Part shown: positions 1,046 through 36,727 of the stretch, piece after piece | Numbering within the stretch: position 1 is the stretch's first letter | Layout: each line of letters begins with the position of its first letter | Source: a virus | DNA length: 64,000 bases | Direction: 5' to 3' (one strand) | IMG/VR virus record: IMGVR_UViG_3300037346_000668 | Location: 1 to 64,000 of that record | Notes under the pieces: model-generated | What the model was told of the DNA's origin: nothing | Database searches by the model: none | The model's input: only the letters and a program-made list of their open reading frames with translations | Position numbers and translations under genes: made by a program

Positions 1046-1357
1046 TTACCAAAATCTTGTTAATTGATCAATGTCTCTAGATTGAAATTGCGCATCGGGA
1101 GCCATAACAACGGATAAGCCATCACCCAATAGATATAATTCCTCAAGATATTTAATAACAGAATTTGTTTTAGATTCATCTATTCCTGTTTGCTCCATGA
1201 CATCAGAGGAAAGTTGATCGATCAAGGATTCAAAATTATCACCGTTATGAAAATTAAAATATTTTTCATATTTTTTAATCCAATCCTTAATTTGATTCAT
1301 TTCTTCCACACTAAGATCATCCTCAATAAACTCGGAAAATTCCAATATAATAGACAT
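1046..1357 (-). CDS. Hypothetical protein with capsid-targeting-like N-terminus
   Basis: 103 aa; starts MSIILEFSEFIED. Confidence 0.6.
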   Translation of the reverse strand: MSIILEFSEFIEDDLSVEEMNQIKDWIKKYEKYFNFHNGDNFESLIDQLSSDVMEQTGIDESKTNSVIKYLEELYLLGDGLSVVMAPDAQFQSRDIDQLTRFW

Positions 1358-1380
1358 AATAATTACTTTTTTTTATCGTA

Positions 1381-1388
1381 GATATATA
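1381..1388 (+). promoter_or_regulatory. Putative late promoter GATATATA
   Basis: Octamer recurs on the coding strand upstream of 12 gene starts in this window. Confidence 0.6.
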
Positions 1389-1413
1389 TATTCTAATTAT
1401 AAAAATTAAATCT

Positions 1414-1761
1414 ATGAAGCATTTAAAAGAAGAAGACGAGTTTATTAATGATGATTCTTATCTTACTAATCAGGAACAAGAATCGGAAGGTTATGATGAT
1501 GACTATGATCAGGAGGTTGATTCAGAATATGATGAGGATGGGGACAACTCAGACTATGAAGATTCCGATGAAATTGAAAATCCAGACGAGGAATATGATG
1601 AGGATGACGAAGTTGAAAATCCAGATGAGGAATATGATGAAGATGATGAAAATTTATCGGAGCCAGCTGACTCAGAAATAGAATCTGATAATCAAGAAGA
1701 AACCCCACAATCTAATGATCGCAGGGTTTTATCATATACTGATTTCTTTACTAAGAATTAA
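1414..1761 (+). CDS. Highly acidic protein, possible prohead core/internal protein
   Basis: 115 aa, D/E-dominated; starts MKHLKE, ends VLSYTDFFTKN; preceded by GATATATA. Confidence 0.6.
   Translation: MKHLKEEDEFINDDSYLTNQEQESEGYDDDYDQEVDSEYDEDGDNSDYEDSDEIENPDEEYDEDDEVENPDEEYDEDDENLSEPADSEIESDNQEETPQSNDRRVLSYTDFFTKN
1567..1644 (+). repeat. 39-bp in-frame tandem duplication (2 copies)
   Basis: Encodes DEIENPDEEYDED / DEVENPDEEYDED. Confidence 0.85.
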
Positions 1762-1985
1762 TCCTTAGTAGTTTTACCAAGATCTCTTCTAATTAGTGAT
1801 CTAACATAATGAGATACAGATTCAGGGGCTTCGCCTTTAGATAAAGCTTTTTTCGCTATCTTTCTTGTTAGATCACTTAAATCTTCACCAGAAAGTAAAA
1901 CTTGTATTTTCTCATCTTTTTCTGCTTTTTCTTCAGATTCAATTAGCTTAGAGCTAACCTTACCGAATTCTTTCAAATTTTCCAT
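1758..1985 (-). CDS. Ribbon-helix-helix-like DNA-binding protein
   Basis: 75 aa; KIQVLLS strand, helix, then SVSHYVRSLIRRDL helix. Confidence 0.5.
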   Translation of the reverse strand: MENLKEFGKVSSKLIESEEKAEKDEKIQVLLSGEDLSDLTRKIAKKALSKGEAPESVSHYVRSLIRRDLGKTTKD

Positions 1986-1990
1986 TCTAT

Positions 1991-3466
1991 TTATTTATTT
2001 TTATTTTTAAATTTTATTCCTGCATGAGGATTACCTTTTGCATTTTTTAAGCTAAATTTATTTTCCGGATTTTTAGTTACTACAAAAGCTTGATCTGCAT
2101 TAACAGATAATCCAGCTCTTCTCATAAATTCACGATTTACTAAAAATGGTGTGCTCTTATCTGTTCTATCATCAGGAGAAATCCTTACCTTTGGTATCAA
2201 AATCCCATTAAATTCAACATCAAGTTCTATAATAGGTCTTTTATGTTTTTTGGTTCCAATTTCAGCCTCAGAATGGTCAACTATTGGATCTATAAACTTT
2301 TTACCGCCTAGAGTCCAGTGAACCTTTCCACCTTTTTCCTCAACTTTATCTGCATGTAATGTACATGATTTAGATCCATTGCCAGTGTCAAATTTTGATA
2401 TAATTTCGCCAATTTTAGATATGCTTAATGTTTCTAGATACCCAACTTCCATATTAGAATAGCTCCAGCTATTTTTATCCAATATATAATCGATAACATC
2501 ATCAACAATAGGTTTACCTATTGCTTTTGATATACCTTCCGTTCCTGGAGACGAGTTAACCTCTAGTATATATGGCTTTTTAGTTTTTGCATCTATCATT
2601 ATATCAACTCCACACCAGTGACAACCAACAGCATTAGCTGCTTTTATTGCTATGTCGGAAAGCTCCTTAGTTATCTTAAATTTATTTACTGTTCCACCCA
2701 GTGAGTAATTAGTTCTAAAATCTTTTTTAACAGCTCCTCTTTTCATAGTTCCAAGTATAAAGGAATTATTATTGGCAACTTTTCTTGGATCTGGATTGAA
2801 TTTTTTGATAATCACCTGTATTCTAAGATCATAATTGGAATCAATTTTTTCCTGTATTAATATCTCGTTGGCTGAATCAAGTTTTCTTATTGTTTGATAA
2901 ACAGATTTAAGAGATGCGTATGAATCTATTATAGAAACTCCGATTCCCTGTGTTCCCGAAAGAAGTTTCATTATAACAGGAAATTTCCCACCTACCGCTT
3001 CCAATGCCCTATCCAGTGAATTTTCATCAGGTACTAATGCAGATTTAGGAACAGGAAGATTATTAGCTTCCATTATTTGTGATGTTATAAATTTGTTCTC
3101 GCAAGCTTCCATAGAAGCTATTGTATTAACGGTAAAATATCTGGCGGCTTCCAAGTTTAAAAGAATCTGTCTGGTGTGTGAATTTTCTAGTACACCTCTT
3201 CTTGGTATTATAACGGTGGAATTTGGATCTATTAATATTTTTTCCTTGCCAGTCTTAAGTAAATGTCCATTATATACTTTCTCAAGAACAACATCATTTA
3301 CATCTATTATATAGCATTTAATGCCTCTTTTTTTACATTCCTTTGTGAATGATTCTGAAGTTTTACTTCCTGTAACGTTACCAGTAAGAACCACAACCTT
3401 CGTTGTTTCAGTTTTAGCTTCATTAAGGAAGGAAGAAAAATCCAGCACATTGTTTGATATCATCAT
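1991..3466 (-). CDS. rimK: RimK-family ATP-grasp ligase fused to C-terminal RimB-like (retropepsin-like) protease
   Basis: CENK, PVIMKLLSGTQGIGV, IQEKI, DLRI, FRTNYSLGG, GVDIM, LEVNSSPG; C-domain KFDTGNG..LH, RP, DR..PFLVNREF. Confidence 0.85.
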   Translation of the reverse strand: MMISNNVLDFSSFLNEAKTETTKVVVLTGNVTGSKTSESFTKECKKRGIKCYIIDVNDVVLEKVYNGHLLKTGKEKILIDPNSTVIIPRRGVLENSHTRQILLNLEAARYFTVNTIASMEACENKFITSQIMEANNLPVPKSALVPDENSLDRALEAVGGKFPVIMKLLSGTQGIGVSIIDSYASLKSVYQTIRKLDSANEILIQEKIDSNYDLRIQVIIKKFNPDPRKVANNNSFILGTMKRGAVKKDFRTNYSLGGTVNKFKITKELSDIAIKAANAVGCHWCGVDIMIDAKTKKPYILEVNSSPGTEGISKAIGKPIVDDVIDYILDKNSWSYSNMEVGYLETLSISKIGEIISKFDTGNGSKSCTLHADKVEEKGGKVHWTLGGKKFIDPIVDHSEAEIGTKKHKRPIIELDVEFNGILIPKVRISPDDRTDKSTPFLVNREFMRRAGLSVNADQAFVVTKNPENKFSLKNAKGNPHAGIKFKNKNK

Positions 3467-3485: not shown

Positions 3486-3493
3486 TATATATC
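3486..3493 (-). promoter_or_regulatory. Putative late promoter GATATATA
   Basis: About 20 nt upstream of rimK start. Confidence 0.6.
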
Positions 3494-4045: not shown

Positions 4046-5200
4046 TTAAAATAAAGCGTTAACCATAAATAGATTTGGACTTATCTGATTGTATCCCATT
4101 ACCTCAATGAACCTATTTATTGGATCAAGAATTGTTTTCGTGAATTGCTCATCATAGTCCAACGGGGGAGCAAATTCATAGGGAAATGTCCCCTGTGGGT
4201 AAGCAAAGATGTTACTATCATTAATATTTTTAGTTTTAACAAAATATAAATTTACTTTGTCACCCGCTCTGATAAGGGAATATTTTGTTTTATATGTTGA
4301 ATTATTTAAAAGGTAGTTATGATAGCCAGATGCTCTAACGTGTATAGGACATGCCTTAGCAACTTCAAATCCGGTAGTATCATTTAATATCTTATCATAA
4401 TTATTAATATTTATTGATGCGGATATGTTTTGTGGCTCCTGTAATTTGAATTCCCTCTTTATTGATTTTAATTCCTTCACAAATTCCCTTATGTCAAAGG
4501 CCCTACCTTTAGTAAAAATAAGCTTCGTTAGATATACCAATTTTTCTCTAACAAAAGGAGGTGTTCCGCCCTTTATCATCTCAACTCCGGTAAATTTAAG
4601 TTGGGTCAGAGGTTCCATATGTAGTCCTGAATCGTAAACGAGATTTGCTACATATTTTTTCTTTCCAAGAAATATAGCATTTATAGCAAGTGTTTCTAGC
4701 TCAAAATCCTGATAGTTTTCGGTTCCCCATTTTTTTGAATAGATATCAAAGCATTTTCTAAGATAATCATTTAATCTATATTCGTTTATTTTTATGATGA
4801 GATCCTTGGCATCCCCTGCATAATCGCAGGAGTCAACAACTTCCTGAAAAGTAACATAATTAGAATCGGTATCACCATAAACAACCAGAGGATTAGTTAC
4901 CCTTTTAACGTGTTTCAATCCTAGCTTCTCATGAAGCTCTGTGTCGAGATGCCAATGTTCATGAAAATATTTATGCAATATCTTCTCAGAATATTTAATA
5001 AGATCCTGACCCTGCAGAGTTACTGCTTCAGCAACATCCGGGTTGAAGCAAACAAAGTAGTTATTTCCGATAGCTCCATAGATAGAGTTCATTGTTAATT
5101 TTACTGCTTGCTCCTCATTCTTATATTCATTCTTAAGAGCGGTAAGTCTCTCTATTTTTTCTTCAATCCCTTTAATTTCTTCCTGTGTCATTAATATCAT
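4046..5200 (-). CDS. gp43B: Family B DNA polymerase, C-terminal half (gp43B-like)
   Basis: Motif B KLTMNSIYG, motif C YGDTDS, KKKY, GVE; C-terminal hydrophobic clamp-binding-like tail MVNALF; lacks exonuclease and motif A. Confidence 0.92.
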   Translation of the reverse strand: MILMTQEEIKGIEEKIERLTALKNEYKNEEQAVKLTMNSIYGAIGNNYFVCFNPDVAEAVTLQGQDLIKYSEKILHKYFHEHWHLDTELHEKLGLKHVKRVTNPLVVYGDTDSNYVTFQEVVDSCDYAGDAKDLIIKINEYRLNDYLRKCFDIYSKKWGTENYQDFELETLAINAIFLGKKKYVANLVYDSGLHMEPLTQLKFTGVEMIKGGTPPFVREKLVYLTKLIFTKGRAFDIREFVKELKSIKREFKLQEPQNISASININNYDKILNDTTGFEVAKACPIHVRASGYHNYLLNNSTYKTKYSLIRAGDKVNLYFVKTKNINDSNIFAYPQGTFPYEFAPPLDYDEQFTKTILDPINRFIEVMGYNQISPNLFMVNALF

Positions 5201-5208: not shown

Positions 5209-5236
5209 ATTATATGGCAATAAAATGAAAGATTTC
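5209..5236 (-). promoter_or_regulatory. Putative middle promoter GAAAT-N17-TATAAT
   Basis: Same bipartite motif with 17-nt spacer upstream of six genes. Confidence 0.55.
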
Positions 5237-5306
5237 ATGGATTTTCTGTATAATATATGAAAGATATATATGGGGCAATAATAAAGTTAACTTTTAAGAT
5301 TCAAAG

Positions 5307-6959
5307 ATGAATATAGATAATTTCATAGGAAATAATGGAAATGTTTCTTCAGCAAAAACAACAGAAAAATACGTTAAAAAACATTTTGTTGAGGAATACA
5401 TAAAAATAGATGAACATGCAAACAGAATAGGACTCACTAATTGCATATACTCGGAAAAAATATATCATTATCTAAATGATCTGAAAGAAGTTGTTGCCTG
5501 TAGAAATTGCAAAATCGTAAAGACGAAATTTAAGGGGCTCGTTCGGGGATACCAAGATTATTGCAGTTCCATCTGTTCGAATTCTTCAGACGAGGTTAAA
5601 AAATTAAAGGAAGCCTCATATATTGATAAATTCGGAGTAAATAATCCATCCAAATCAGAGGAAATAATTCAAAAAATTCAAAAAACCTTCGATGAAAAAT
5701 ACGGTGGAAATCCATTTACACTAGATTCGTTTAAAACGAAAATCAAGGCTACCAATATTTTAAAATACTCAGCTGAGTATCCGATGCAGAAAAATAGCAC
5801 ACTCAGAAAATCAATCGACGAGAAAAATATAAAAAAAGCAATTTTTAAGTATAAGGAGCTTAAAATTATAGGCATTGAAAGTAAAAAATACGGAGACGTA
5901 AAAATAGAATGTGATAAATGCAATTCGATTTTTACTATAAGCAAATGGAATCTTCATCAGAGAACAAATAGCAAATTAAACCAATCACCTTGTACAATAT
6001 GTTACCCAATAGGTGATAAGCAAAATTCAATGCAAGAAAGATTCATAGAAAAATTACTAATTGATAATAACATTCCCTACAAAAAAGGAGATAGAAAAAT
6101 ACTTAAAGGTACTGAAATTGATTTCTATATAGAAAAATATAGAATAGGAATAGAAATAGATGGTCTATATTGGCACTCTGATAAATTTAAGGATAACGAA
6201 TATCACCTAAGAAAAACGGAAGAAAGTAAAGAATCAAATATAAATCTAATTCATATTTTTGAAGATGAGATAAACAATAAGCCCAATATTGTTTCATCCA
6301 GGCTTCTATCAATATTTGGAAAATATGAAAATACTATATTTGCCAGAAAATGTAAAATAATCCCGCTAAACAGCAAGGATAGCAACGATTTTTTGGATAA
6401 AAATCACATGCAAGGTAAATGTGGGGCTTCCTTCAGATATGGTCTCGAATACAATGGCGAATTAATTTCAGTAATGACCTTTGGAGAATTAAGGAAAAAT
6501 CTTGGTAATAAGAAAGAAGAGGGATCTTACGAACTTATTAGATTCTGTACAAAAACTAATACAAGTGTAATAGGTGGAGCTTCTAAATTATTGAAACATT
6601 TCATCAATAAAAATTCACCAAAAAAAATAATATCATATTGTGACAGAAGATGGTCTAATGGTGAATTTTACGAAAAAATAGGATTCAATACTGATCATGT
6701 AACAAAACCAAACTACTGGTACACTAAAAATGGATTTAGAGAAAATAGGTTTAAATACAGAAAAGACATTCTAGTAAAAGAAGGATATGATACAAACAAA
6801 ACAGAATCCTCAATCATGAAAGATAGAGGATTCCTAAGAATATATGACTGCGGAAGTTATAAATATACTATGCAGCCCTCTTATTTTTCAACTAACCCTA
6901 TTGCTATTGATGTTGCTGACTGCTCAGAAAATAGAACTAGCCTATTATCATGTACATAA
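5307..6959 (+). CDS. Hef-like free-standing homing endonuclease (zinc motifs, PD-(D/E)XK/Vsr-like nuclease, GNAT-like C-domain)
   Basis: CxxC pairs, KFGVNNP-type repeats, EIDFYI..IGIEIDGLYWHS, YELIRFC..GGASKL..SYCDRRWS..IYDCG; opposite strand to neighbours; GATATATA at 5263-5270. Confidence 0.7.
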   Translation: MNIDNFIGNNGNVSSAKTTEKYVKKHFVEEYIKIDEHANRIGLTNCIYSEKIYHYLNDLKEVVACRNCKIVKTKFKGLVRGYQDYCSSICSNSSDEVKKLKEASYIDKFGVNNPSKSEEIIQKIQKTFDEKYGGNPFTLDSFKTKIKATNILKYSAEYPMQKNSTLRKSIDEKNIKKAIFKYKELKIIGIESKKYGDVKIECDKCNSIFTISKWNLHQRTNSKLNQSPCTICYPIGDKQNSMQERFIEKLLIDNNIPYKKGDRKILKGTEIDFYIEKYRIGIEIDGLYWHSDKFKDNEYHLRKTEESKESNINLIHIFEDEINNKPNIVSSRLLSIFGKYENTIFARKCKIIPLNSKDSNDFLDKNHMQGKCGASFRYGLEYNGELISVMTFGELRKNLGNKKEEGSYELIRFCTKTNTSVIGGASKLLKHFINKNSPKKIISYCDRRWSNGEFYEKIGFNTDHVTKPNYWYTKNGFRENRFKYRKDILVKEGYDTNKTESSIMKDRGFLRIYDCGSYKYTMQPSYFSTNPIAIDVADCSENRTSLLSCT

Positions 6960-9126: not shown

Positions 9127-9468
9127 TTATTGAGAATCTTTATTATTGTTTAAAATAACAGTATTTCTACTATGGAGAAATACTACAAAGGATTCAATCA
9201 TAACACCGCCTGAACTTTGAACAAACGGGAATATAAAATAATTAACCCATAGAGGAAGTCCAAAAAATTGATTAAGCTCACCATTATAGTTTATGACACC
9301 AAAAATTAAAAAACCAACCCAGAAGCCAAGGCACCTAACGCATGTCATTAGCTTAGATAGCTTTGGTGTTTTTACTAATAGATAGTTTCTGATAGGATCC
9401 AGGATGTCGGAATTTACAATAGTTGATGTTATACACCATCCGACAAATATTATTAAGAGTATATTCAT
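9127..9468 (-). CDS. Membrane protein, DUF1360-like
   Basis: 113 aa, hydrophobic helices, LMTCVRCLGFW. Confidence 0.55.
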   Translation of the reverse strand: MNILLIIFVGWCITSTIVNSDILDPIRNYLLVKTPKLSKLMTCVRCLGFWVGFLIFGVINYNGELNQFFGLPLWVNYFIFPFVQSSGGVMIESFVVFLHSRNTVILNNNKDSQ

Positions 9469-10502
9469 TATGAAAAGTATTCGAGAGCATTTATTTGCTC
9501 TTCCGTTAATTCAGTTGGTATTTTTATATTGGCTTTAACTAGTATGTCTCCATTTCCAAATCCATTAAATTCAGGTATTCCCTTACCAGGTAATCTAAAT
9601 ATCTTACCAGCTGAAGTTCCTGCAGGTATCCTTATTCTATATGCGGATCCCCTCAAATTTGTTAGTTCTATTTCTGTTCCTAAGCAAGCATCCTTGAATG
9701 ATATGTTTGCCTCATGAACCAGATTATTCCCATCCCTGGTATATGTTGAATGAACATATTCATTAATATTGACTATAAGATCACCAGGATTGCATGGGGA
9801 TTTAACCCAATCTCCCTTTCCTATAACCATATACGAAACCCCGGATATAGATCCTTTTGGTATATTTATATCCATTTCTTCCTCTCTTCTGATAGTTCCA
9901 TCGCCATAGCAAACCGGACATTTGACCTCAGCAATTTTTCCACTGCCTGTACATTTAAAACAATCCTCAACAACAGACATATCGCCAAAAGCATGTCTTA
10001 CTGTCCTGGTTTTTTTACCAAGCCCGTGACATTCGTCACAATCCTTGGAGTGTCCAAATTCTGCGCCTGACCCACTACAATCAATACATTGTGCTGCCCT
10101 ATTTACTTTAACTTTCTTTGCTACCCCAGTCATCATCTCCTCCAAGGTAATAGTAACATAAACATTTATATTATTACCTTTTCTTATTGTCTGATTTGGT
10201 ACATTTCCTCTACCTGGGCTCCAAAAGTTTCCGAAGTCAGCATTCTGGAATGGATTTCCCTGGTTTGTTCCTCCCCAGTTAAAACTTCCGCTGAATACAT
10301 TTGGATTATCATATTTTTCTCTCTTCTTCTGATCTGAAAGTGTCTCATATGCCTCGTTTATCTCCTTGAATTTTCCTTCCAGTATCGGATCGTTACCTGT
10401 CTTATCCGGATGATACTGGACAGCTAATTTCCTATATGCTTTCTTTATCTCTTCCGGTGTTGCATTTTTTGACACACCTAGAGTTTTATAGTGATCCGCC
10501 AT
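9468..10502 (-). CDS. dnaJ: DnaJ chaperone (type I)
   Basis: J-domain with HPD, G/F region, four CxxCxGxG repeats, C-terminal domain. Confidence 0.95.
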
Positions 10503-14009: not shown

Positions 14010-14543
14010 TTAAGAATAAAATACTTCTTCTATTTGTCTAGGTTCAATAAATGTAGAAAAATAAGCAACTGACTCAGGTGTTGCAAAAGCTTCTTTTTTC
14101 TTGGAAACGGGAAGACCTATGATAAAATCAACGCCATCCAGATTGGTAATACCAGTAACTATATACTCGCTATCTATGAAAAGATTTCTACCTTCACCAC
14201 CATAGATATTATCCCCAGGAGCTACATCAGCAGCTTCTACTCTGCTTCCTCTTATGCTATGTTGCTCTTTTTCTATTCTTTTTCTTTCGATATCAAGCGT
14301 ATCAAGAACATGTTGAGGAGCTTTTTTCCCCTGCATCGGAAGATCAACAGTCATTGTTATTTCCTGGACCTGGCCAGTTTTTTGCTGATCTAAAAGGTCG
14401 CTTATATAAGAGAATATTTTTGTAGTAGATACCTCATCCTCCGGTTCAGCAGAAGGGCTCCTTCTAAAATCATCCATATTATAGACAGGAACTCCAGATT
14501 CGTTCAAACCCTCATAGGATTCAAATTCTAAAAGATGTTTCAT
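14010..14543 (-). CDS. Hypothetical protein with capsid-targeting-like N-terminus
   Basis: 177 aa; MKHLLEFESYEGLNES; GATATATA at 14561-14568. Confidence 0.65.
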   Translation of the reverse strand: MKHLLEFESYEGLNESGVPVYNMDDFRRSPSAEPEDEVSTTKIFSYISDLLDQQKTGQVQEITMTVDLPMQGKKAPQHVLDTLDIERKRIEKEQHSIRGSRVEAADVAPGDNIYGGEGRNLFIDSEYIVTGITNLDGVDFIIGLPVSKKKEAFATPESVAYFSTFIEPRQIEEVFYS

Positions 14544-16508: not shown

Positions 16509-17163
16509 CTTTTTTCTTTTTAACTTCTTTAAGCCCGAGTTTTTTTACTATCGCTTTAAGAACCCCTTCCATCCCCAGATCGGCATCAATTTTTATTAAT
16601 TTTCTGCTTTTCTTATAAAAATCAACTAATGGAAACGTTTTCTCGTTATATTCAGCGAATCTTTTATCTATAACCTCATCACTAGCATCATCCTTTCTAC
16701 CTTCCTTCTTAGCTCTATTTCTTATTCTTTCCTTTGCTTTCTCTTCAGGAAGATCCATAAATATTGCGTGATTTAGACCAAGGCCAAGTTTGCCGAGTAG
16801 GGAATCCAATTTTCTAGCTTGTTTTATTGTTCTTGGATATCCGTCAAATATTATACCCTTATTAAGATCCAATTTTTTCATCTCTTTTCTTAACATCTTA
16901 AGCATCATAACATCAGATATGAATTTTCCTTCCTCTATAATCTTTTTTAAATCAGGATCGTCGGATTTTCTGATTAAATCTCCAGTAGAGATATGATTTA
17001 TACCAAATTTATCATTTAATTGTTTTGATAATGTTCCCTTACCAGATCCGGGTGCTCCTAGCATCACCAGAACATCACCTTGTGAATCTGGTAGCTCTCT
17101 TTCATTTAAAAATTCATCAAATTTTTTAATGACATCATCAGTAAACAGCTTCTTATTATTCAT
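16495..17163 (-). CDS. adk: Adenylate kinase (short LID) with N-terminal capsid-targeting-like extension
   Basis: GAPGSGKGT, HISTGDLIR, FDGYPRT, RKDD; N-terminal VIKKFDEFLNE. Confidence 0.92.
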   Translation of the reverse strand: MNNKKLFTDDVIKKFDEFLNERELPDSQGDVLVMLGAPGSGKGTLSKQLNDKFGINHISTGDLIRKSDDPDLKKIIEEGKFISDVMMLKMLRKEMKKLDLNKGIIFDGYPRTIKQARKLDSLLGKLGLGLNHAIFMDLPEEKAKERIRNRAKKEGRKDDASDEVIDKRFAEYNEKTFPLVDFYKKSRKLIKIDADLGMEGVLKAIVKKLGLKEVKKKKDEKI

Positions 17164-22732: not shown

Positions 22733-23038
22733 ATGAAAAATTTACAAAAATTCAAAGGTTTCGTTAATGAATGGATCGACTCTCCGGGAAGCGTTGATGT
22801 CCCTGGCCAATCATACGAGACAAAGGTAAACAGGAGAAACTACCAAAGTGCTGATCCAACAATGCCAGAAACAATAGACGCAATGTACGAGTCTTCATAT
22901 TTCCACGACTTCCTAGATGATGCGGGAAGATCTGAGGAATTCAATAAATTCATAGGCGAAGATAAAAAATCGGGGTCAGATATAACTGAATATTTAAAGA
23001 TTTCGTTTCAAGAAAAAAACTCAAAAAAGAAAGAATAA
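22733..23038 (+). CDS. Hypothetical protein with capsid-targeting-like N-terminus
   Basis: 101 aa; MKNLQKFKGFVNE. Confidence 0.65.
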   Translation: MKNLQKFKGFVNEWIDSPGSVDVPGQSYETKVNRRNYQSADPTMPETIDAMYESSYFHDFLDDAGRSEEFNKFIGEDKKSGSDITEYLKISFQEKNSKKKE

Positions 23039-23046: not shown

Positions 23047-24012
23047 ATGCAAAATTTTAAAGGGTGGATCAACGAGGCAAGATTGTCAATAAAAGTTGAT
23101 GTAGAGGAGCTAGAAAAAATATATACACCAGAAAACATAGTATTTCCTAACATATTATCAAAATATTTTAATAATATCAGAATAGAGGAAATAAAAAAAG
23201 AATGCTCTAAGTTACTTACAGAGGAGTATGATACTAGGCTAAATGAGAAACTTAAATGGCTAAAATTTTCAGATAAAATAGCAACAGGATATCCAATTAT
23301 GGAGGCACATTTTAGATTCATGGGTAAATTTTATCCATTAAATGTTGACATACCCGCGGATTTAAAATCTAATCAACCATCAAAGGAGGGTAATCAAATA
23401 TACATTCCTATAATTGAAAATATAGCCAGAACGATAAAGATATTCAAGGACGAGGAATCACACGAGGAAATAAACAAATCCATAGAATTTCATGCTGGTA
23501 TAAATAAGGTGAAATATGACGAGGAAAAACTTAAATATGTCGTAACAAAACCTAATGATGATTATGGCTACCGAATAGTTATACAAACCGACGGAACTGT
23601 TTTAACTGAAGAGGAGTCAAAAAAAATACCAAAAGACAAAACTTCAGCATTTGAAGACTCAAAGATACAAAGCTATAATCTAAAAAAAGGTAAGCCTATA
23701 AGATTTACATCAAAACTTGGAAGCGATGGGTTTGTTACAGGAAAGGTATTCAGAATAATTAATAAGAAGTTCAAAAAATTTGGAAGAACAGACAATTGGG
23801 CTATATTCGACGATCATATAGAAATGGATCTTGAGTTTGAAAGAGACGGAAAAACAATGAAGATCCACAAGATGTTCAAACCTAATGATATAATATACCT
23901 GCCATTAGGTGAGGATAAGAAATTTGTAAAGTGCGAGGTTCAAAAGCCCTTCTACGTTTCAAATCCAGTACTTAAGGAACCAATAAATCTAAGGATCAAA
24001 GTTCTAAAATAA
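23047..24012 (+). CDS. Hypothetical protein with capsid-targeting-like N-terminus
   Basis: 321 aa; MQNFKGWINEA. Confidence 0.65.
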   Translation: MQNFKGWINEARLSIKVDVEELEKIYTPENIVFPNILSKYFNNIRIEEIKKECSKLLTEEYDTRLNEKLKWLKFSDKIATGYPIMEAHFRFMGKFYPLNVDIPADLKSNQPSKEGNQIYIPIIENIARTIKIFKDEESHEEINKSIEFHAGINKVKYDEEKLKYVVTKPNDDYGYRIVIQTDGTVLTEEESKKIPKDKTSAFEDSKIQSYNLKKGKPIRFTSKLGSDGFVTGKVFRIINKKFKKFGRTDNWAIFDDHIEMDLEFERDGKTMKIHKMFKPNDIIYLPLGEDKKFVKCEVQKPFYVSNPVLKEPINLRIKVLK

Positions 24013-25162: not shown

Positions 25163-25588
25163 TTATCTATAATCTCCTCTAGCCTCTTTTCTCTTCAGAT
25201 ATTGCCAAAGAAAATTTAATCCCTTAGCATAATCCTTAGCGGTTTTAAAAGGTTCGCTGAATTTTTTTATATCGTTACCGTTTCCCTCACCAATTTCTTT
25301 AGACTTTAATGGGTTATATCTTCTGACCGTTCCTGATGGATGTATAGTATAAAACACATCACCATGACCGAGTTCTTTTTGCTTTTTAACTCCTCTAACG
25401 AACTTCAACGTGTTGTTTATTTCCTGCTGATGTGAAGTATCATCATCAAAACCAAGAGATAATATTCTTCTATATTCTCTTGATTTTCTTACCCTATCCA
25501 ATTCAATTTCTCTTCTATATTCGGTTTTATATTCATATTCCGGAGAATATGACTTAAAATCAAGAAGATGTTTCATCTGCTTTTTCAT
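25163..25588 (-). CDS. Hypothetical protein with capsid-targeting-like N-terminus
   Basis: 141 aa; MKHLLDFKSY. Confidence 0.6.
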   Translation of the reverse strand: MKKQMKHLLDFKSYSPEYEYKTEYRREIELDRVRKSREYRRILSLGFDDDTSHQQEINNTLKFVRGVKKQKELGHGDVFYTIHPSGTVRRYNPLKSKEIGEGNGNDIKKFSEPFKTAKDYAKGLNFLWQYLKRKEARGDYR

Positions 25589-25982: not shown

Positions 25983-26291
25983 TTATTTTAATTTTTCCCA
26001 CTCTGGTGTGAATCTATTAACCATGGCTGAATGTATTAATTGAGGAACACCCGGTTTATACCACATATCTGCAACATAGATACAGTCACCCTCCTTTCCC
26101 CCCTCTATTATCTCAACGACATTATAAGTAGCACTTCCCATACCTGCTATATTACCAGTTTCGATTTCACCAATAATGGGCATTTTTGTTACGTCACCAC
26201 CACTATATCTAAGTACTTTTCCAGGTCTTCTTGGTCCATCCATTAATATATCCTCAGATATAAAATTAGAGAAAGGTTTAACATTTTTCAT
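25983..26291 (-). CDS. Hypothetical protein with capsid-targeting-like N-terminus
   Basis: Start reassigned to ATG 26291 (MKNVKPFSNFISE), 4 nt after GATATATA at 26296-26303. Confidence 0.6.
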   Translation of the reverse strand: MKNVKPFSNFISEDILMDGPRRPGKVLRYSGGDVTKMPIIGEIETGNIAGMGSATYNVVEIIEGGKEGDCIYVADMWYKPGVPQLIHSAMVNRFTPEWEKLK

Positions 26292-26318
26292 AATGTATAT
26301 ATCTAACAAAAAAAAGAC

Positions 26319-26781: not shown

Positions 26782-26807
26782 GTTATGTTTTTTTTAAAAA
26801 TTAATAA

Positions 26808-27040: not shown

Positions 27041-27586
27041 TTATCTGCTTATAATTAATGATTTTTCATCCGTACCGTTCTGGACTGCCCAATTTTTACC
27101 AAGTTCTGATATACAAATAGACTTCATATATTCTATATATTCACCCTTTCCTTTATATTCAAGATTGTCCTGGAGCTCGTCATATATTCTTATCACCTTT
27201 GGATTAAGGGAAAGATAATCGAGCACACATCTGAATATGTATTCCATTAAGCGGGAAAGCTCGTTACCATCAACCAGGAATTTACTTTCATCAGGAGATG
27301 GTATATCCTCTTTATTAATAGCGATATCCTCTATAACCTCGTGACCTATTTGATTTATATTAAGTACACAATATGAATTTTTGGCTCCCTCTATAGCTTC
27401 ATTCTCAGAATACTTCCCTATTATAAGATGGTATCCCATTTCTTCCTCCCCGTCCTCGCTATCCAATGTGAAAAAATAATGATGAACATCACTAACTTTC
27501 TTCATTAAAAAGGACGAAGTCCCAAATCCATCATTTTCATTTATCGGATTAGTAAATTGCTCAAATGATTCAATAAACTTTTTCAT
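27041..27586 (-). CDS. Hypothetical protein with capsid-targeting-like N-terminus
   Basis: 181 aa; MKKFIESFEQFTNPINE. Confidence 0.65.
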   Translation of the reverse strand: MKKFIESFEQFTNPINENDGFGTSSFLMKKVSDVHHYFFTLDSEDGEEEMGYHLIIGKYSENEAIEGAKNSYCVLNINQIGHEVIEDIAINKEDIPSPDESKFLVDGNELSRLMEYIFRCVLDYLSLNPKVIRIYDELQDNLEYKGKGEYIEYMKSICISELGKNWAVQNGTDEKSLIISR

Positions 27587-27587: not shown

Positions 27588-29627
27588 CTATTCTTGATTA
27601 TTTTTTTCTATATTCTGAAAAATTTCACATTCGGCTATAAGATCAGAATCTACAAAAGTAAGATCTTGATTCTCTTTAATACCTGTTCCTCTCTGTGAAT
27701 CTATCAATGAATTATAAACATTTGCAACCGCTTGTGGCACAAGTTTTTTAAATCCAGTATAGTCTTCAGAATCTATTTTTTTCCTAATGTCACTTCCACT
27801 GGAAGATCTCTTAGTTTGAATTATTTTTATATCATCAGGAAAATCCCCTCCTGCTTTCTTAAGGTATTCAACTTGCTTATTATAATCCTCTATCCTATCA
27901 TCACCAGCACCTATTACTTTAGGAAGAAATCCATATTCCTTAGCCTTTCCGTAAATAGGACCAAGTAATCCCCGATTAACTATAAAATAACCAGATATTT
28001 TACCAGGATTATCTCTAACTATTCCTTCCATATATCTCGATATTAATTTTTCATCATATGGTGATTTGCCAGATTTGTTATGTCCATGATGGACAACAGC
28101 TATTATGCTAGGAAGATCGTTTTCCTTATATAATTGATCAACCATCTTAAGGTGGCCATTATGGAAAGGCTGGAATCTACCAACTAATAAATTAACAGGC
28201 TCCAATTTTTTTACGTCATCGGAAGAGTCCTCTTTTATTTCCTTTGTCTTATCTTTCTTTGTGGTATCTATAGTTTCTAATGTTGATATAAACTCATTAT
28301 AGGAATAGAACGGATCGTCAACATCATCAGAGGTGTCATCCAAATTTTCGGATTCAACTGTAACATAATCTATTTTCTTCGAGGATATATTACTTTTCTT
28401 AAAATCCATGAAAGATGGGATAGATTCGGATTCTTGTATAGCTGGCTTAATCTCCTTGGCAACAACACCCTCTATATCACTTACCACTATATTAAATTGA
28501 TCTATTATACCAGCAGTTATTATTCCGCTAGCTCTTTTTCTTATTTTTCTAAATGAGTTAAGCATAAGCTTAAAAAGTGATTCATAAGAATCATCGGTAT
28601 CCAAATACTTAAGTACTCTTTTATCCTTTATCATGTTCAAATTCAATCTGAACTCATCCTTTTTTAAATAATCAGGTTCCTGAAAATCAGCACCTCTATA
28701 TTTATATGCGTATTCTCCAAGGAATTTAACAAAAACGTCGGACATGAAGGAGATATATCTTTCATCGTCGCTATCACCGGCAACGTTAAATGACTCAACA
28801 CCTTCCTCGAGAATATAATTCATTATATCCATTATAGTTAGACCCAGAAAATCGCTAGGCTTTTCCTCAGATCTTTTACTATATTTCTCCTTGGCCATCT
28901 CAGTAAAAACTGGATCAACCATTTTGGATAATATTGGTTCCTTACCATTATCTTCCTCACCAAATCTAAAAACTATTCCTTCTATCGGCTTATCAAGGTC
29001 ATTGTTAAGTGCACTTGTTTTTGAGGAAGGATTAAGAACACCTATTATGTACCTAACAAAGCTCTTTGTCTTATACTCAGCAACCAGCTGATCGAATGGT
29101 GTTCTTAGAAAATCCAATATTTGATTCTTCTGATCATCAGTTAGCATGCCCTGAAATACTATAGGTGGTCTTTCGACACCCAGAAGATCCGCCCAATTAT
29201 TTAATTGTTCCTGATCCTGTATTGTTGATGAGGGGCTTCCGTTTTCGTTCTTTGTATGGATATATGATAATATTAGATTATTCTTAGGTAATCTATCATA
29301 AGCAATCTCAACCGGTTGGTTGTTTGAAAAATACTCAAGACCAAATCTCCAACCCCTAGGTATATCATTAAGAATATGTGGTGGGAGTGACTCTATATAG
29401 TTTATCGGCTTTTCGTAATATTTCATAAGAGTACGATCAACAAGAGTTATTGGGTATCTTTGATCTCTTTTATAAAAATTAAATCTACCAGTTTCAGGGT
29501 CTCTTTCAAAAACAAAAGCAGAGCCATCCATTTTTTCATTAATGGTCACATAAGAGTTAAAGAGATTATCAATAAAATCTTTACCTTTTTTGTTATAAAT
29601 ATCATATAAATGACTAATTCCTGCCAT
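27588..29627 (-). CDS. Fusion: Rnl2-like ligase/adenylyltransferase domain + HxGH (NMNAT/cytidylyltransferase-like) domain
   Basis: Ligase motifs I EKMDG, III GLEYF, IV EGIVFR, V KMVDPVFTE; acidic linker; GRFQPFHNGH, GDDR, SSGSDIRK. Confidence 0.75.
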   Translation of the reverse strand: MAGISHLYDIYNKKGKDFIDNLFNSYVTINEKMDGSAFVFERDPETGRFNFYKRDQRYPITLVDRTLMKYYEKPINYIESLPPHILNDIPRGWRFGLEYFSNNQPVEIAYDRLPKNNLILSYIHTKNENGSPSSTIQDQEQLNNWADLLGVERPPIVFQGMLTDDQKNQILDFLRTPFDQLVAEYKTKSFVRYIIGVLNPSSKTSALNNDLDKPIEGIVFRFGEEDNGKEPILSKMVDPVFTEMAKEKYSKRSEEKPSDFLGLTIMDIMNYILEEGVESFNVAGDSDDERYISFMSDVFVKFLGEYAYKYRGADFQEPDYLKKDEFRLNLNMIKDKRVLKYLDTDDSYESLFKLMLNSFRKIRKRASGIITAGIIDQFNIVVSDIEGVVAKEIKPAIQESESIPSFMDFKKSNISSKKIDYVTVESENLDDTSDDVDDPFYSYNEFISTLETIDTTKKDKTKEIKEDSSDDVKKLEPVNLLVGRFQPFHNGHLKMVDQLYKENDLPSIIAVVHHGHNKSGKSPYDEKLISRYMEGIVRDNPGKISGYFIVNRGLLGPIYGKAKEYGFLPKVIGAGDDRIEDYNKQVEYLKKAGGDFPDDIKIIQTKRSSSGSDIRKKIDSEDYTGFKKLVPQAVANVYNSLIDSQRGTGIKENQDLTFVDSDLIAECEIFQNIEKNNQE

Positions 29628-29650: not shown

Positions 29651-30583
29651 TTATTGTATTCTATTAATCTCAGTAGGTATTTCTAGTCCAACCCTTTGCA
29701 AAAATTCCAAAAATCTTTCCTTTATTTCTGGTAACTTATCACTTAATTCGAAATCTGACGACATTATTACAGAAAACAGTTGTTCAAAGGTTTTAACATC
29801 GTCTATATTATAACCAGGGCCTAGTGCAAAATTAATAAATTCCTGAGGATTATTAGTAACAAATCTCTCACTTCCTTCTATTTTTTTAGGATTTTTCAAT
29901 CTATCTTTGATTTTTCCCCTGTATGATTTTGTATGCCAATATAAACCATCACTTAAAATAAGGACTGGTGTATTATAATCTAATACCTCGCCTGTATCAC
30001 CAAGCTCAATTATTTCCTTTCTTGAAGATAATATGGCTGCTAATAGCCAATTTCTATGAGCTGATTTATATTTGCTTTCCCTTATTTTGTAATTTGGTGA
30101 ATAGTATATAAAATCTGCCCATTTCATATCTGATAGAGGTATAAGATCAAGCTGAACTATACCTTTATCTATATTACCATCTATTGGCCACCCAATACTA
30201 ACTATATTAAGTCCCTTCAAATAATTTATTTCAGGTCGGAACCCTATAATATCACCAAGATCATTTTTTATCTTATCGTATATAAATCCAGAGCATTCCT
30301 TCATTGTTATGCCATTAGTGTCAGAATACCATTTAGCATCATAGCCAATATCAAGATCACCAGAGGTATCATCAGGATTTTCTTTTTTTCCTATACTTCC
30401 TATTATCACATATTGATCATTGATTCTCGATTGATCTATACCAAGAATCGGAAAAAGCTTTTCTTTTATCGATAATAGGGTTCCTGGAAATTCATCCTCA
30501 CGTATTCGTCTAGATGTTTTTATTGCGGATCCTCCCTCAAACAAGGCTTTAAAATTAGAAAAATTAAGGATACCATTACCCAT
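29651..30583 (-). CDS. Pol-beta superfamily nucleotidyltransferase with capsid-targeting-like N-terminus
   Basis: IGSIGKK...SGDLDI...VQLDL catalytic triad; N-terminal ILNFSNFKALFEGG. Confidence 0.75.
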   Translation of the reverse strand: MGNGILNFSNFKALFEGGSAIKTSRRIREDEFPGTLLSIKEKLFPILGIDQSRINDQYVIIGSIGKKENPDDTSGDLDIGYDAKWYSDTNGITMKECSGFIYDKIKNDLGDIIGFRPEINYLKGLNIVSIGWPIDGNIDKGIVQLDLIPLSDMKWADFIYYSPNYKIRESKYKSAHRNWLLAAILSSRKEIIELGDTGEVLDYNTPVLILSDGLYWHTKSYRGKIKDRLKNPKKIEGSERFVTNNPQEFINFALGPGYNIDDVKTFEQLFSVIMSSDFELSDKLPEIKERFLEFLQRVGLEIPTEINRIQ

Positions 30584-31134
30584 TATGCTCTCTTTTTTGT
30601 TTTTTTATAGTAGGTACCCATTATATCTTTAAGATAATCCCTATAAATTTCTTGCTCCTTATCCTTAGGGTTCTGTGGGGTAAAATCATCACCGAAGTAT
30701 TTTTTACCTCTAAGGACACCCGATTTATAAAATTCCTCAGCATCACCATCAGTAACTCTTCTATTTTCTATATGCTCACCCTCCCACTTTTTGATTATCT
30801 CATCTTTTCTTCTCTTTATCTCTTCCTTATCAAGATCCTTCCACGATTTAGTTTCTTCGCCTGGCGAAAGAAAATCTATAAAAGCAGCAGCTCCCTTAGT
30901 AAGTCCCTTAACTGCTAAACCTATAACGCTAGAAGCACTCTTTATGGTTGACATATTAGGGTCAGCGTCTGTATAATAACTACTATATCCGCCGTCTCCA
31001 ATACCTATATTATTTCCTATTCTTCTAAGCCATCTCGAGAATGAAGTTTTACCCTCCGCTTCGAGATAGTCAGAATTGCGATAGGATTCCTGAATTTTAT
31101 AATTATTAAATTCATCAAAAGATTTTATTGTCAT
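30583..31134 (-). CDS. Hypothetical protein with capsid-targeting-like N-terminus
   Basis: 183 aa; MTIKSFDEFNNYKIQES; GATATATA at 31153-31160; amphipathic segment VIGLAVKGLTKGAAAFIDFL. Confidence 0.65.
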   Translation of the reverse strand: MTIKSFDEFNNYKIQESYRNSDYLEAEGKTSFSRWLRRIGNNIGIGDGGYSSYYTDADPNMSTIKSASSVIGLAVKGLTKGAAAFIDFLSPGEETKSWKDLDKEEIKRRKDEIIKKWEGEHIENRRVTDGDAEEFYKSGVLRGKKYFGDDFTPQNPKDKEQEIYRDYLKDIMGTYYKKTKKRA

Positions 31135-34516: not shown

Positions 34517-34527
34517 ATTTTTAATTA

Positions 34528-35517
34528 TTATAGGTCGCTATAAAGATCCTCTAATGAATTTGTTGCACTAGGTGTGCTTGGGGAAGAAGCTGTAGCTGTA
34601 TTCTCGTATCCACTTACCTTAGTATTACTAACCTCATTATAAAGATTATTAGATGGATTGCTTGTTTGCGAAGCTTGTTGGCTCGGAGCAGGTCTAGAAG
34701 CCTGTGGTGCTGGTCTAGACGGAGCTGATGCTGAGCTACCAATGATTTCATTAAGAACTCTTTGCTCCGGTACGCTGTTTCTGATTACATTCATGATCTT
34801 ATCAGTAAGATCATCGTCCCAATCTTTATAATCAAAGCTTGTTAGATTCTTAGGTACTGCGTTTAAATATGAAAGAATAACCTCCATATCTTTCTGATTC
34901 TTCTCCATCGATTTACCATCAACTTTGATCGAAGTTTTCTCTCCCACAAAAGAGCATAAATCATAGTTATTCCACTCGCCAACTTTTCTTACACTTACTG
35001 AAAATTCCCTACCCTCGAAAAGATCGAAAGGATTGCACGGAGCTCCGTATTCTGGTTGTAGTTGTGCCTCGATCATATCATTAAGCTTTTTACCAAACTT
35101 AAAGATCATAACCTTTCCTTCCAATTCCGGTTTATTCTTATCCTGTACAATCTGAACAAGAGAATAGAAATCTTCCTTTCTTGCGAAGTTTTTAGATAAC
35201 TCCTGGTCAGCAGCAGAATGTGAATTTTTAAGTTTCCAGAATAAATCCTTTAATATTGATTTTTTACCAACAGTCGAAGGACAATCTGCAGAAAACCCAT
35301 CACCACTTACTGGATCTTTTAAATACACATAATATTTATGTATTTTTGATTTTGCTGGATTCTCTGGATTTGGCAGGAATCTAATTAATGATTTATAAAC
35401 TCCATCCTTACCATCTTCCGGGTATGGCTTATAAAAATCATCCTTGTCCCCACCTGTTGTTGGAACTTTTGTTACGAATGCCTCTGCATCCAAATTGAAA
35501 ATGTCTAAATTACTCAT
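34528..35517 (-). CDS. gp32: Single-stranded DNA-binding protein (gp32-like)
   Basis: IRFLP, EGKVMIFKFGKK, NPFDLFEG, NYD, low-complexity linker, acidic end LEDLYSDL. Confidence 0.88.
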   Translation of the reverse strand: MSNLDIFNLDAEAFVTKVPTTGGDKDDFYKPYPEDGKDGVYKSLIRFLPNPENPAKSKIHKYYVYLKDPVSGDGFSADCPSTVGKKSILKDLFWKLKNSHSAADQELSKNFARKEDFYSLVQIVQDKNKPELEGKVMIFKFGKKLNDMIEAQLQPEYGAPCNPFDLFEGREFSVSVRKVGEWNNYDLCSFVGEKTSIKVDGKSMEKNQKDMEVILSYLNAVPKNLTSFDYKDWDDDLTDKIMNVIRNSVPEQRVLNEIIGSSASAPSRPAPQASRPAPSQQASQTSNPSNNLYNEVSNTKVSGYENTATASSPSTPSATNSLEDLYSDL

Positions 35518-35528
35518 CTTTCTTAAAT

Positions 35529-35562
35529 TTTTTTAATTTGTTTTTTAATTTGTTTTTTAATT
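35529..35562 (-). repeat. A-rich 12-nt tandem repeat in the gp32 leader
   Basis: Plus strand TTTTTTAATTTG x2 plus a partial third copy. Confidence 0.6.
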
Positions 35563-35763
35563 CTTTAAATTTTACTTCCATTTTTACTTTTGTTTCCTCT
35601 AATCTTATAATATTACATTTTTTTTATTTTTATTGACCTATTTCTTTAATACCGTACACTAAAATAACACACGAATATATTTATTGTGTGTTATGTTGTA
35701 TATGTTAAAATTGTGATTGTATGTTCTATGAATTGGGTAGACCCTGATAAGGTCACAAGAAAA

Positions 35764-36480
35764 TTACACCAATTTCTTTGTAGTCTTTTTACTTTTAGAT
35801 TTCCCTTTAATAACTTCATTATTTCCTCTTAATTCCTCTTTTAAATACAAATTAATCCAAGTTGAATCAACAACATCGTCTATTGGCTTATTTATTGCCT
35901 TAGCTCCTGTTATCCATTCGTTTTTATTCTCTTCTAATATCTTACAGAATACATTTAAGTTTGTTTCATTCTCCCTTAAATTATATAATGCGTGGTATAA
36001 TTCATCCTTCTTAAATGTCCCCTTACCAGCAAATTTTTTAATTGTTGTTGGCGAAAAGACATAAAAATTTTCACTACCTATTTTTTCTATTATTCTCTCT
36101 CTTAAAAGCGCCGTTGCCATAGATATATCAACAAGTGAATTACCATTTGAAGAAAAACTTAGACCCTCCATTGCTACGTAAAATGTATCATCCCCCATAA
36201 CATCCAGGATAGAGCTCCAAAGTAATTCAACTATTTCTAGGAAATAACCCATTTTTTCCCTTTCCTTTGCAGAATATTCATCAGAAAATTCCTGCTTCCC
36301 TAATATTTTAATAATAAAATTATCATCAGAATCAAGTATAAAATATGGTTTTTTCTTATTTTTCAATAACGATTCAAATGTTCTATCAGATCTAGAAATT
36401 GATCCCCACACATATCTATTATTTTTCAAACAACAGAAAGAAGGGGAATTTAGTGAAAAATCGATTCCGACTAAATTCAT
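35764..36480 (-). CDS. RuvC-like Holliday junction resolvase
   Basis: GIDFSLNSP, MEGLSF, PTTIKKFAGKG..KD, DDVVDS. Confidence 0.8.
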   Translation of the reverse strand: MNLVGIDFSLNSPSFCCLKNNRYVWGSISRSDRTFESLLKNKKKPYFILDSDDNFIIKILGKQEFSDEYSAKEREKMGYFLEIVELLWSSILDVMGDDTFYVAMEGLSFSSNGNSLVDISMATALLRERIIEKIGSENFYVFSPTTIKKFAGKGTFKKDELYHALYNLRENETNLNVFCKILEENKNEWITGAKAINKPIDDVVDSTWINLYLKEELRGNNEVIKGKSKSKKTTKKLV

Positions 36481-36490
36481 ATATTTAACT

Positions 36491-36727
36491 TTACTGGTTA
36501 ATATCCTGTTTTTGTCCGGTCGAACCGGTTGTTCCGTAAACCTTAGCTAGTTTACTAAAGCATGACTTAACCTGCTCTTCACTAAGACAATCTATAATAT
36601 CATCTAAAACTCTTCTATCGTTACCACAAGCAGCAATTAATAGATTTTTCATATGATCTTTTTCACTATATAGTGGTTGTCCGTATTTTGCCTCGTTTAC
36701 CTCTTTTAAATTTGAGAATGTTTTCAT
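36491..36727 (-). CDS. Hypothetical protein with capsid-targeting-like N-terminus
   Basis: 78 aa; MKTFSNLKEVNEA; GATATATA at 36748-36755. Confidence 0.65.
   Translation of the reverse strand: MKTFSNLKEVNEAKYGQPLYSEKDHMKNLLIAACGNDRRVLDDIIDCLSEEQVKSCFSKLAKVYGTTGSTGQKQDINQ

Follow-up and report, generated by a model that had tools for sequence, protein, structure and literature searches.

A recurrent N-terminal peptide on unrelated megaphage proteins matches the capsid-targeting signal of phage T4 and probably marks them for loading into the head

The window analysed in this work is a stretch of 64,000 nucleotides (nt) of viral DNA (positions 1 to 64,000 of IMG/VR record IMGVR_UViG_3300037346_000668), with which an 82,935-bp viral contig of 34% G+C (hereafter G0) begins. 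We observed that 10-11 unrelated proteins encoded by G0 open with one and the same short peptide, whose consensus is h-x-x-F-x-x-(F/Y/W)-(0-4 aa)-(L/I/V)-N-E, where h is a hydrophobic residue. An adenylate kinase (Adk), a RimK-like ligase and a Pol-beta-like nucleotidyltransferase are among the proteins that carry this N-terminal tag. Because the tag has the four key residues of the capsid-targeting sequence (CTS) of phage T4, the phage probably loads these enzymes into its head.

Three close relatives of G0 are present in IMG/VR. G1 (207,751 bp) is collinear with the whole of G0 and shows 88.6% DNA identity to it; G2 (430,120 bp) and G3 (434,509 bp) have direct terminal repeats and are both rated complete. 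Judging from these collinear and complete relatives, G0 is a piece of a megaphage of about 430 kb. Its replication and nucleotide genes are of T4 style (split DNA polymerase, primase, gp32-like single-stranded DNA-binding protein, topoisomerase II subunits), and class I ribonucleotide reductase (RNR), MazG and adenylate kinase are also encoded. The structural genes of the contig specify a tail tube, gp6-, gp25- and gp5-like baseplate proteins and very large structural proteins. The nearest named relatives of the capsid protein of this clade are found in an uncultured 462-kb phage (45% identity) and in Lak megaphages (43%), followed by jumbo phages of Tenacibaculum, Flavobacterium and Chryseobacterium (about 32%), and the host of the clade is probably a member of the Bacteroidota. 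The DNA probably comes from a salt-lake metagenome; freshwater, estuary and subsurface runs that contain a small share of such DNA were, one freshwater run apart, not counted as evidence of habitat.

The tags were evaluated with a two-block position-weight score trained on G2. Nine window proteins scored at least 18 bits, with a chance expectation of at most 0.01 each (open reading frame (ORF) starts 23047, 3466, 17163, 27586, 31134, 36727, 22733, 14543 and 30583). In the sequences that follow, a comma marks the predicted cleavage point. The top score, 24.7, was obtained for MQNFKGWINE (23047..23076, + strand), which opens a 321-aa protein of unassigned function (ORF 23047-24012) for which no Pfam, PHROG or usable Atlas match was found; its orthologues begin with ..QKFKGWINE and ..QKFNGWVNE. 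The tag ..VLDFSSFLNE,A (3419..3466, - strand; score 23.7) belongs to the 491-aa RimK-like ATP-grasp protein (ORF 1991-3466), which matches Pfam RimK at 3e-34 over residues 123-328 and whose gene is preceded, 27 nt upstream, by the late-type promoter element GATATATA (3486-3493). Adenylate kinase (ORF 16495-17163) begins with ..IKKFDEFLNE,RELPD (17101..17163, - strand), contained in an extension of about 30 aa before the P-loop, and the 310-aa Pol-beta-like nucleotidyltransferase (ORF 29651-30583) with ..ILNFSNFKALFE,GG (30536..30583, - strand).

The remaining high-scoring tags open small proteins. A score of 20.0 was given by MKKFIESFEQFTNPINE,N (27536..27586, - strand; 181-aa protein, ORF 27041-27586), which is kept in both relatives, as is MKHLLEFESYEGLNE,S (14499..14543, - strand; 177-aa protein, ORF 14010-14543; score 18.4), which has GATATATA 25 nt upstream. 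The element also precedes MTIKSFDEFNNYKIQE,S (31087..31134, - strand; 183-aa protein, ORF 30583-31134; score 19.2) by 26 nt, at 31160, and this ORF heads an operon with the nucleotidyltransferase and a ligase. Similarly, it lies 28 nt upstream (36755) of MKTFSNLKEVNE,A (36692..36727, - strand; 78-aa protein, ORF 36491-36727; score 19.0) and 14 nt upstream (22719) of MKNLQKFKGFVNE,W (22733..22771, + strand; 101-aa protein, ORF 22733-23038; score 18.6). Two further tags were read directly. One of them, MKNVKPFSNFISE,D (26253..26291, - strand; 102-aa protein, ORF 25983-26291), is by eye as good as the nine and is identical in the G1 orthologue, and was outside the scored set because an opposite-strand ORF had been called there. 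That ORF (26176-26517, + strand) is probably spurious; it overlaps the tagged gene, which is preceded by a promoter on the - strand, and the TTG start listed for the tagged gene at 26309 should be the ATG at 26291. The other, MSIILEFSEFIE,D (1322..1357, - strand; 103-aa protein, ORF 1046-1357), has both aromatics and F-I-E (FSEFIE); it is convincing by eye although its score is low, and its G2 counterpart reads FSEFED...

Three candidates were, taken singly, no better than chance by the position-weight score. MENLKEFGKVSSKLIE,S (1938..1985, - strand; ORF 1758-1985) has one aromatic and a score of 5.3, for which about 3 are expected by chance. MKHLKEEDEFINDD (1414..1455, + strand), at the start of an acidic 115-aa protein (ORF 1414-1761) with GATATATA 33 nt upstream, scored 3.7 and has Asp at the position expected for Glu. 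..LLDFKSYSPEYE (25532..25588, - strand; ORF 25163-25588; score 2.8) has the aromatic pair and lacks the aliphatic-x-Glu site. For the approximately 14 proteins to which an earlier note on this DNA had attributed a common peptide, all 14 peptides named are located at the N-terminus of the ORF; 10-11 are good cases and three or four are weak, the fourth (1357) by score only. A tag on the 679-aa ligase-nucleotidyltransferase fusion (27588-29627) was rejected, given that its pattern match, FNSYVTINE-KMDG, is the KxDG adenylation motif. Searches of Pfam and PHROGs with 10 window proteins were negative for 8 of them. Cleavage is predicted after residues 10-22, with a mode at 13: the commonest form of the tag is a 13-mer with the first aromatic at position 7. 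One to four residues are often inserted before the cut site, and the residue preceding the terminal Glu (P2, the Glu being P1) is nearly always Asn.

When the first 34 residues were searched with the pattern [FYW]xx[FYWL]x(0-4)[LIVMF][NSQATDG]E, 9 genes of G0 matched, as compared to 1.2 ± 1.0 after each N-terminus had been shuffled with its composition preserved (z = 7.7). The same test gave 21 vs. 3.7 in G1 and 34 vs. 11.4 in G2. The excess over shuffles suggests about 9 tags in G0 and about 27 in the complete G2, and to more when x-F-E,A variants are counted. At N-termini, the pattern [FYW]xx[FYW][LIVM]NE reaches 19-44 times the density that it has in the interior of proteins (p from 2e-4 to 4e-7). 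Motif discovery, which the earlier note had suggested together with the comparison to shuffled N-termini, led to the same peptide: a crude seed-and-refine search on the N-termini of G1 recovered ..F..F[LI]NE de novo, and the interior controls yielded only generic Lys/Glu-rich patterns. A shared domain or paralogy was excluded by a BLASTP comparison of the 14 proteins stripped of the tag, which showed no mutual similarity (best E = 0.057). The motif is absent, as the earlier note had reported, from the replisome proteins, namely both parts of the split DNA polymerase, primase, the gp32-like protein, helicase, the topoisomerase subunits and RNR.

Comparison of orthologues showed that selection acts on the tag at the protein level. 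Between G0 and G2, 52 synonymous and 36 nonsynonymous differences were counted in 184 tag codons, with the key residues kept; the divergence is approximately that of the next 30 codons, and different tags mix TTT with TTC, AAT with AAC, and GAA with GAG. A DNA-level element was rejected on account of this free synonymous variation. In 119 orthologues of the nucleotidyltransferase (61-100% identity), F8 is found in 117, F11 and E16 in all 119, and position 14 is always aliphatic, whereas positions 2-5, 7, 9, 10, 12 and 13 vary (entropy of 2.2-3.5 bits). Adenylate kinase gave a similar picture. Anchoring succeeded for 116 of 120 orthologue clusters; all 116 have Glu at P1 and Leu or Ile at P3, 108 have Asn at P2, and Phe stands at P4 and P7 or is shifted by one residue. 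Over the 115-120 orthologue clusters per protein of three tagged proteins, constancy is restricted to four positions, those of the two aromatics, of the aliphatic residue and of the Glu. Such a conservation pattern, as read from the alignments, is characteristic of short linear motifs in proteins.

The peptide stands in front of the enzyme folds. In adenylate kinase the Pfam ADK match begins at residue 34, and homologues from other phages align only from residue 32. An AlphaFold2 (AF2) model of the nucleotidyltransferase has a mean pLDDT of 89.4, with averages of 42 for residues 1-10 and 54 for residues 11-20; from about residue 21 onwards the chain is folded, with values above 90. According to the model, the tag is a disordered add-on before the fold. 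The assignment of this protein to the Pol-beta type is consistent with its invariant G-S ... D-x-D ... D residues and with Foldseek matches to Pol lambda, TdT, Pol beta, Cid1 and CCA-adding enzymes, which are weak (E of about 5e-3) and mutually consistent; Atlas gave only a 33% NTP_transf_2 lead. As for export signals, direct reading of the tags revealed no hydrophobic core of at least 10 residues, no twin-arginine and no lipobox Cys, as would be expected for Sec, Tat or signal-arrest-release (SAR) sequences; charged and polar residues alternate with two or three hydrophobic ones.

The element GATATATA occurs in 17 copies in G0, 15 of which are in sense orientation 12-70 nt upstream of ORF starts, those of tail genes included. 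In the window it is found on the + strand at 1381..1388 and starting at 5263 and 22719, and on the - strand with 5' ends at 3493, 14568, 21224, 26303, 31160, 36755, 40778, 46350 and 60326. The statement of the earlier note that most tagged genes lie behind this element held, since seven follow it directly and the others are placed downstream of it through tightly spaced genes on the same strand. In G2, where GATATATA also stands ahead of portal, protease, tail and baseplate genes, the odds ratio of its association with the tag is 6.3 (p = 9e-6). No tag is present on the tail and baseplate proteins encoded behind the element, which argues against a translational requirement. In 11 G2 genes and in the window gene starting at 26291 (element at 26303), GATATATA begins exactly 12 nt before the ATG, and this spacing implies late mRNAs with little or no leader. 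Between the divergent genes 1046-1357 (- strand) and 1414-1761 (+ strand), the interval 1358-1413 contains a palindromic TAGATATATATATTC common to both, which could be a bidirectional promoter.

The CTS of T4 is MKTYQEFIAE (PMC8442874), and amber-suppressor mutagenesis assigned its residues 4 and 7 to targeting and its residues 8 and 10 to processing; the T4 protease gp21 itself has L-I-E at residue 9 (PMC9026906). Considering the sequence pattern only, the Ar-x-x-Ar-h-x-E arrangement of the CTS (Ar, aromatic) is exactly that of the compact tag, and the positions fixed in the latter correspond to residues 4, 7, 8 and 10. The clearest case is the tag at 23047, which equals the CTS in length (10 residues) and spacing. 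In both systems, N-terminal peptides of 10-20 aa with an (L/I)-x-E cleavage-type site are found on unrelated proteins. The genes that accompany them in T4 have counterparts in the relatives of G0, which encode a protease of the gp21 family, a capsid protein of the gp23 family, portals of the gp20 family and, for late transcription, a sigma factor of gp55 type. For the use of enzymes as cargo, T4 Alt is a precedent. The Asn at P2, the prevalence of the 13-mer and the insertions of 1-4 residues are instead features of this clade, which differs from T4 also in the number of tagged proteins (an estimate of at least 27 per 430-kb genome, against a handful) and in the putative cargo, which extends beyond small basic anti-restriction proteins to nucleotide-metabolism, ATP-grasp, nucleotidyltransferase and cell-wall enzymes. 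The lineage is distant from T4 (phmmer E = 8e-9 between the capsid protein and gp23).

The head module was read in the relatives. G1, G2 and G3 each encode a protein of about 655 aa with a Peptidase_S77 (gp21-family) domain at its N-terminus, which matches PHROG 207, head maturation protease, at 1e-38. G1 and G2 have a Gp23-family capsid protein (1e-40), which aligns to T4 gp23 including the N-terminal region, and G2 has a gp55-like late sigma factor. The capsid protein starts with MKLINE and contains HSLNE,SAG, with S-L-N-E at residues 41-44, and the protease has KNLNE near its own N-terminus, with N-L-N-E at residues 9-12. An h-x-E site with a small or polar residue behind it is present at the corresponding place, before a conserved G-M-G, in the capsid proteins of distant relatives as well: INE,S in PTm1, ILE,S in pT24, LYE,N in LR756500 and IYE,S in MaF61. 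The Lak-A2 protein has LNE,D near the N-terminus, where the start may be mis-called and the G-M-G is not evident. Moreover, the full tag is found on neighbours of the capsid gene, which are proteins of 384, 320, 300, 218, 148 and 86 aa. The 86-aa protein opens with MITFNSFRLLE,A. The 300-aa protein opens with MTLKFKEWDxLNE,A. This tag recurs in 115 orthologues, the most distant of which are 44% identical; W8 and E13 never vary, and F5 and N12 are present in at least 90%. This protein is predicted to consist almost wholly of long helices, with a low pTM, and looks scaffold-like. A fold search against viral models returned only non-specific long-helix matches, for example to tape-measure proteins, and none with E ≤ 0.001, so its putative scaffold role rests on position, composition and predicted helices.

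Two features of this module are reported as such. Tandem gp20-like portal paralogues are located at 116117-119375 in G1 and at 271968-275238 in G2 (Pfam Portal_T4, 2e-69 and 1e-57). The G2 protease gene (286176-288140) encodes the protease domain at residues 20-180 and, in the same chain, a C-terminal extension of about 430 aa; the PTm1 counterpart of this fusion is annotated as prohead core scaffolding protein and protease.

On these grounds, we consider it probable that the tag is a capsid-targeting and prohead-protease propeptide of T4 type, which in this clade has spread to about 30 cargo proteins per genome. Tagged genes would be expressed late, together with the head genes, from GATATATA read by the gp55-like sigma factor. 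By analogy with T4, the amphipathic h-x-x-Ar-x-x-Ar stretch would bind the scaffolding core of the assembling prohead, which may include the helical scaffold-like proteins bearing the same tag. After closure of the shell, the gp21-family protease would cut after the Glu of (L/I/V)-N-E, as it is proposed to do in the N-terminal region of the capsid protein. The mature cargo would then stay with the DNA and be ejected at the next infection, which is the least certain step: that the enzymes are retained in the mature head and injected appears only slightly more probable than the contrary. On the view of the earlier note, the injected enzymes would act before phage transcription starts. For the window, the cargo would comprise adenylate kinase, the RimK-like ATP-grasp ligase, the Pol-beta-like nucleotidyltransferase and several small proteins. 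In G2, the tagged proteins beyond the counterpart of the window include CHAP, glucosaminidase, YkuD/Tlde1-like and OmpA-like peptidoglycan-binding proteins, all devoid of a signal peptide, and this combination fits delivery by virion ejection. The packaging signal postulated by the earlier note is backed in its core, the propeptide, by the head genes of the relatives, by the h-N-E sites, by the tagged scaffold-like neighbours of the capsid gene, by the match to T4 and by the disordered position of the tag before the enzyme folds; three or four of the examples are weak.

Several observations weigh against this interpretation. No head genes are present on the 83-kb G0 contig, which ends about 6 kb short of the position of the head module, and the clade is uncultured and known from sequence alone. 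HMMER puts the T4 capsid cleavage point about 20 residues downstream of LNE, although in a stretch aligned with low confidence. The MazG-RNR-Adk operon and genes for GIY-YIG homing endonucleases likewise stand behind GATATATA, which is therefore not a mark of virion genes only; late, virion-linked expression of every tagged gene is thus presumptive. An injected adenylate kinase would have no obvious role, and some tagged proteins could be degraded or expelled, as scaffold is, and not retained. The depletion of internal [LIVM][NSQ]E[ASGND] sites in mature cargo, 1 observed against about 6 expected, supports the interpretation weakly: the comparison was made post hoc, and plain [LIVM]NE is not depleted there. 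In the 75 kb sampled from Tenacibaculum phage PTm1, 1 tag match was found as compared to 1.2 expected. Since this phage does possess that type of protease, together with an I-N-E,S capsid site, tags are not predicted by the protease alone. Tagged neighbours were also absent from the 17-kb capsid-gene regions of LR756500, Lak-A2, MaF61 and pT24. Consequently, the tag family is, as sampled, that of the G0-G3 clade, with no cultured model.

Other explanations of the tag were weighed. An amphipathic helix that sends late proteins elsewhere, such as the membrane, a replication or assembly compartment, or a chaperone like the DnaJ encoded by the phage, with no need for cleavage, would agree with the i, i+3, i+4 hydrophobic spacing, with the presence of the DnaJ homologue (9468-10502) and with a mixed cargo that includes cell-wall enzymes. 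We regard it as unlikely, because it leaves unexplained the invariant Glu and near-invariant Asn, the same h-N-E in the N-terminal region of the capsid protein and at the N-terminus of the protease, the one-to-one match to the T4 determinants and the tagged scaffold-like neighbours of the capsid gene; moreover, a hydrophobic core like that of signal peptides or SAR sequences is missing from the tag. Alternatively, the prohead protease or a different late protease might remove the tag as a zymogen- or degron-like propeptide, so that enzymes are activated or turned over at a set time within the infected cell, with packaging playing no part. The invariant Glu with its aliphatic partner and the h-N-E of capsid protein and protease would then denote a shared protease site and not packaging as such; a cytoplasmic role would suit adenylate kinase and the ligase better than injection does, and the RNR operon is driven by GATATATA too. 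This appears quite improbable to us. Proteases of the gp21 type are active inside proheads, and the complete tag is found on scaffold-like proteins of the head module. In addition, the two aromatics are as conserved as the cut site, and their T4 equivalents direct targeting, not cutting (PMC9026906).

A signal at the nucleotide level is suggested by the several copies of GATATATA that begin only 12-14 nt before the ATG: the 5' coding sequence could serve initiation on late mRNAs with a short leader or none, in a host that does not use Shine-Dalgarno sequences, and the MK.IK start consists of AT-rich codons, G2 N-termini being broadly rich in K.IK.F. There is little room for this explanation, considering that synonymous codon choice varies freely, in tags as well as from one orthologue to the next, with the encoded residues preserved, that composition-preserving shuffles abolish the motif, and that the constrained residues lie 4-16 codons past the start. 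Furthermore, tail, baseplate and portal genes behind the same promoter are without the motif, and PTm1, also an AT-rich Bacteroidota phage, shows no enrichment. As regards a chance resemblance among AT-rich N-termini, three or four of the listed examples are singly indistinguishable from it, but the family as a whole exceeds the shuffles with z = 7-29 in three genomes, is far denser at N-termini than in interiors, and keeps the same positions over hundreds of orthologues; we give this possibility practically no weight, and a composition artefact is ruled out by the shuffles within N-termini together with the interior controls.

The T4-type propeptide that we favour can be compared with other packaging systems. 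In phiKZ, 201phi2-1 and SPN3US, gp175/gp245 process 8-19 head proteins with N-terminal propeptides by cutting after Glu; these propeptides are thought to target the prohead, and the virion RNA polymerase is packaged and ejected (PMC5694885, PMC9026906). The points in common with the present clade are the giant myovirus type and the gp21-related protease, with its cut (here a predicted one) after Glu. In contrast, their cleavage occurs at (S/A/G)-x-E and their propeptides mostly exceed 100 aa and have no short consensus, whereas the tags described here are 10-22 aa long, sharply conserved and legible in the sequence itself, with Leu, Ile or Val at P3 and Asn at P2. Encapsulin cargo-loading peptides offer an analogy only, as short linear peptides that bring diverse enzymes to a shell of HK97 fold; they are usually C-terminal, bind the shell directly and remain uncleaved, and no scaffold, protease or DNA is involved. 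Proteins, among them enzymes and cell-wall hydrolases, that are carried in the virion and delivered with the DNA are represented by P1 Dar, the T7 gp14-16 core, the N4 virion RNA polymerase and the crAss001 cargo. To our knowledge, none of these four shares a common short N-terminal consensus removed by a gp21-type protease.

Other features of the window were observed in the course of the analysis. The family-B DNA polymerase is encoded by two genes about 16 kb apart, 4046-5200 and 21257-22663 (both - strand), which match positions 491-840 and 64-497 of PHROG 262, respectively. The gene for the C-terminal fragment adjoins a 1.7-kb segment (5214-6881) that is absent from the collinear G1 and is thus an insertion with respect to it; it contains a 550-aa HNH homing endonuclease (ORF 5307-6959, + strand; PHROG 3339, 9e-110) with its own GATATATA. 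The DnaJ homologue (9468-10502, - strand) is full-length and has the HPD motif of the J domain near its N-terminus; phage-encoded DnaJ and DnaK have been reported for aquatic Bacteroidota 'moraphages' (PMC12619734). Metatranscriptome contigs from one riverine sample, belonging to a relative 90-95% identical, span most of the region from 22.7 to 31.2 kb; they are silent on transcript starts and timing and may include DNA carry-over. One of them, over 26352-26816 (small ORFs 26319-26579 and 26548-26781), has a word depth of 143, as compared to about 6 for its neighbours, and this peak may represent a very highly expressed small gene or RNA.

The mechanism proposed here has its precedent in T4; what is new is the lineage, together with the consensus, the number of tags and the kinds of enzymes. 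In the literature searched, no paper on megaphages, huge phages or jumbo phages also mentions capsid targeting. We consider evenly balanced the broader proposition that a clade of megaphages of about 430 kb, from salt-lake and other aquatic samples, loads some 30 proteins or more per genome by means of a readable tag and injects them as a starter kit. If so, this would be the largest natural set of CTS cargo known, the T4 determinants at positions 4, 7, 8 and 10 would be conserved in a lineage whose capsid protein is distant from gp23, and the natural variants of the tag would be available for engineering protein packaging. The proteins injected by a phage are the first of its factors to act in the host, and their discovery normally requires virion proteomics of phages in culture. 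If the interpretation is correct, the injected proteome of these phages would include metabolic and nucleic-acid-modifying enzymes and not only anti-restriction proteins, and the packaged and ejected proteome of uncultured megaphages would be readable from sequence, that is, from metagenomes alone.

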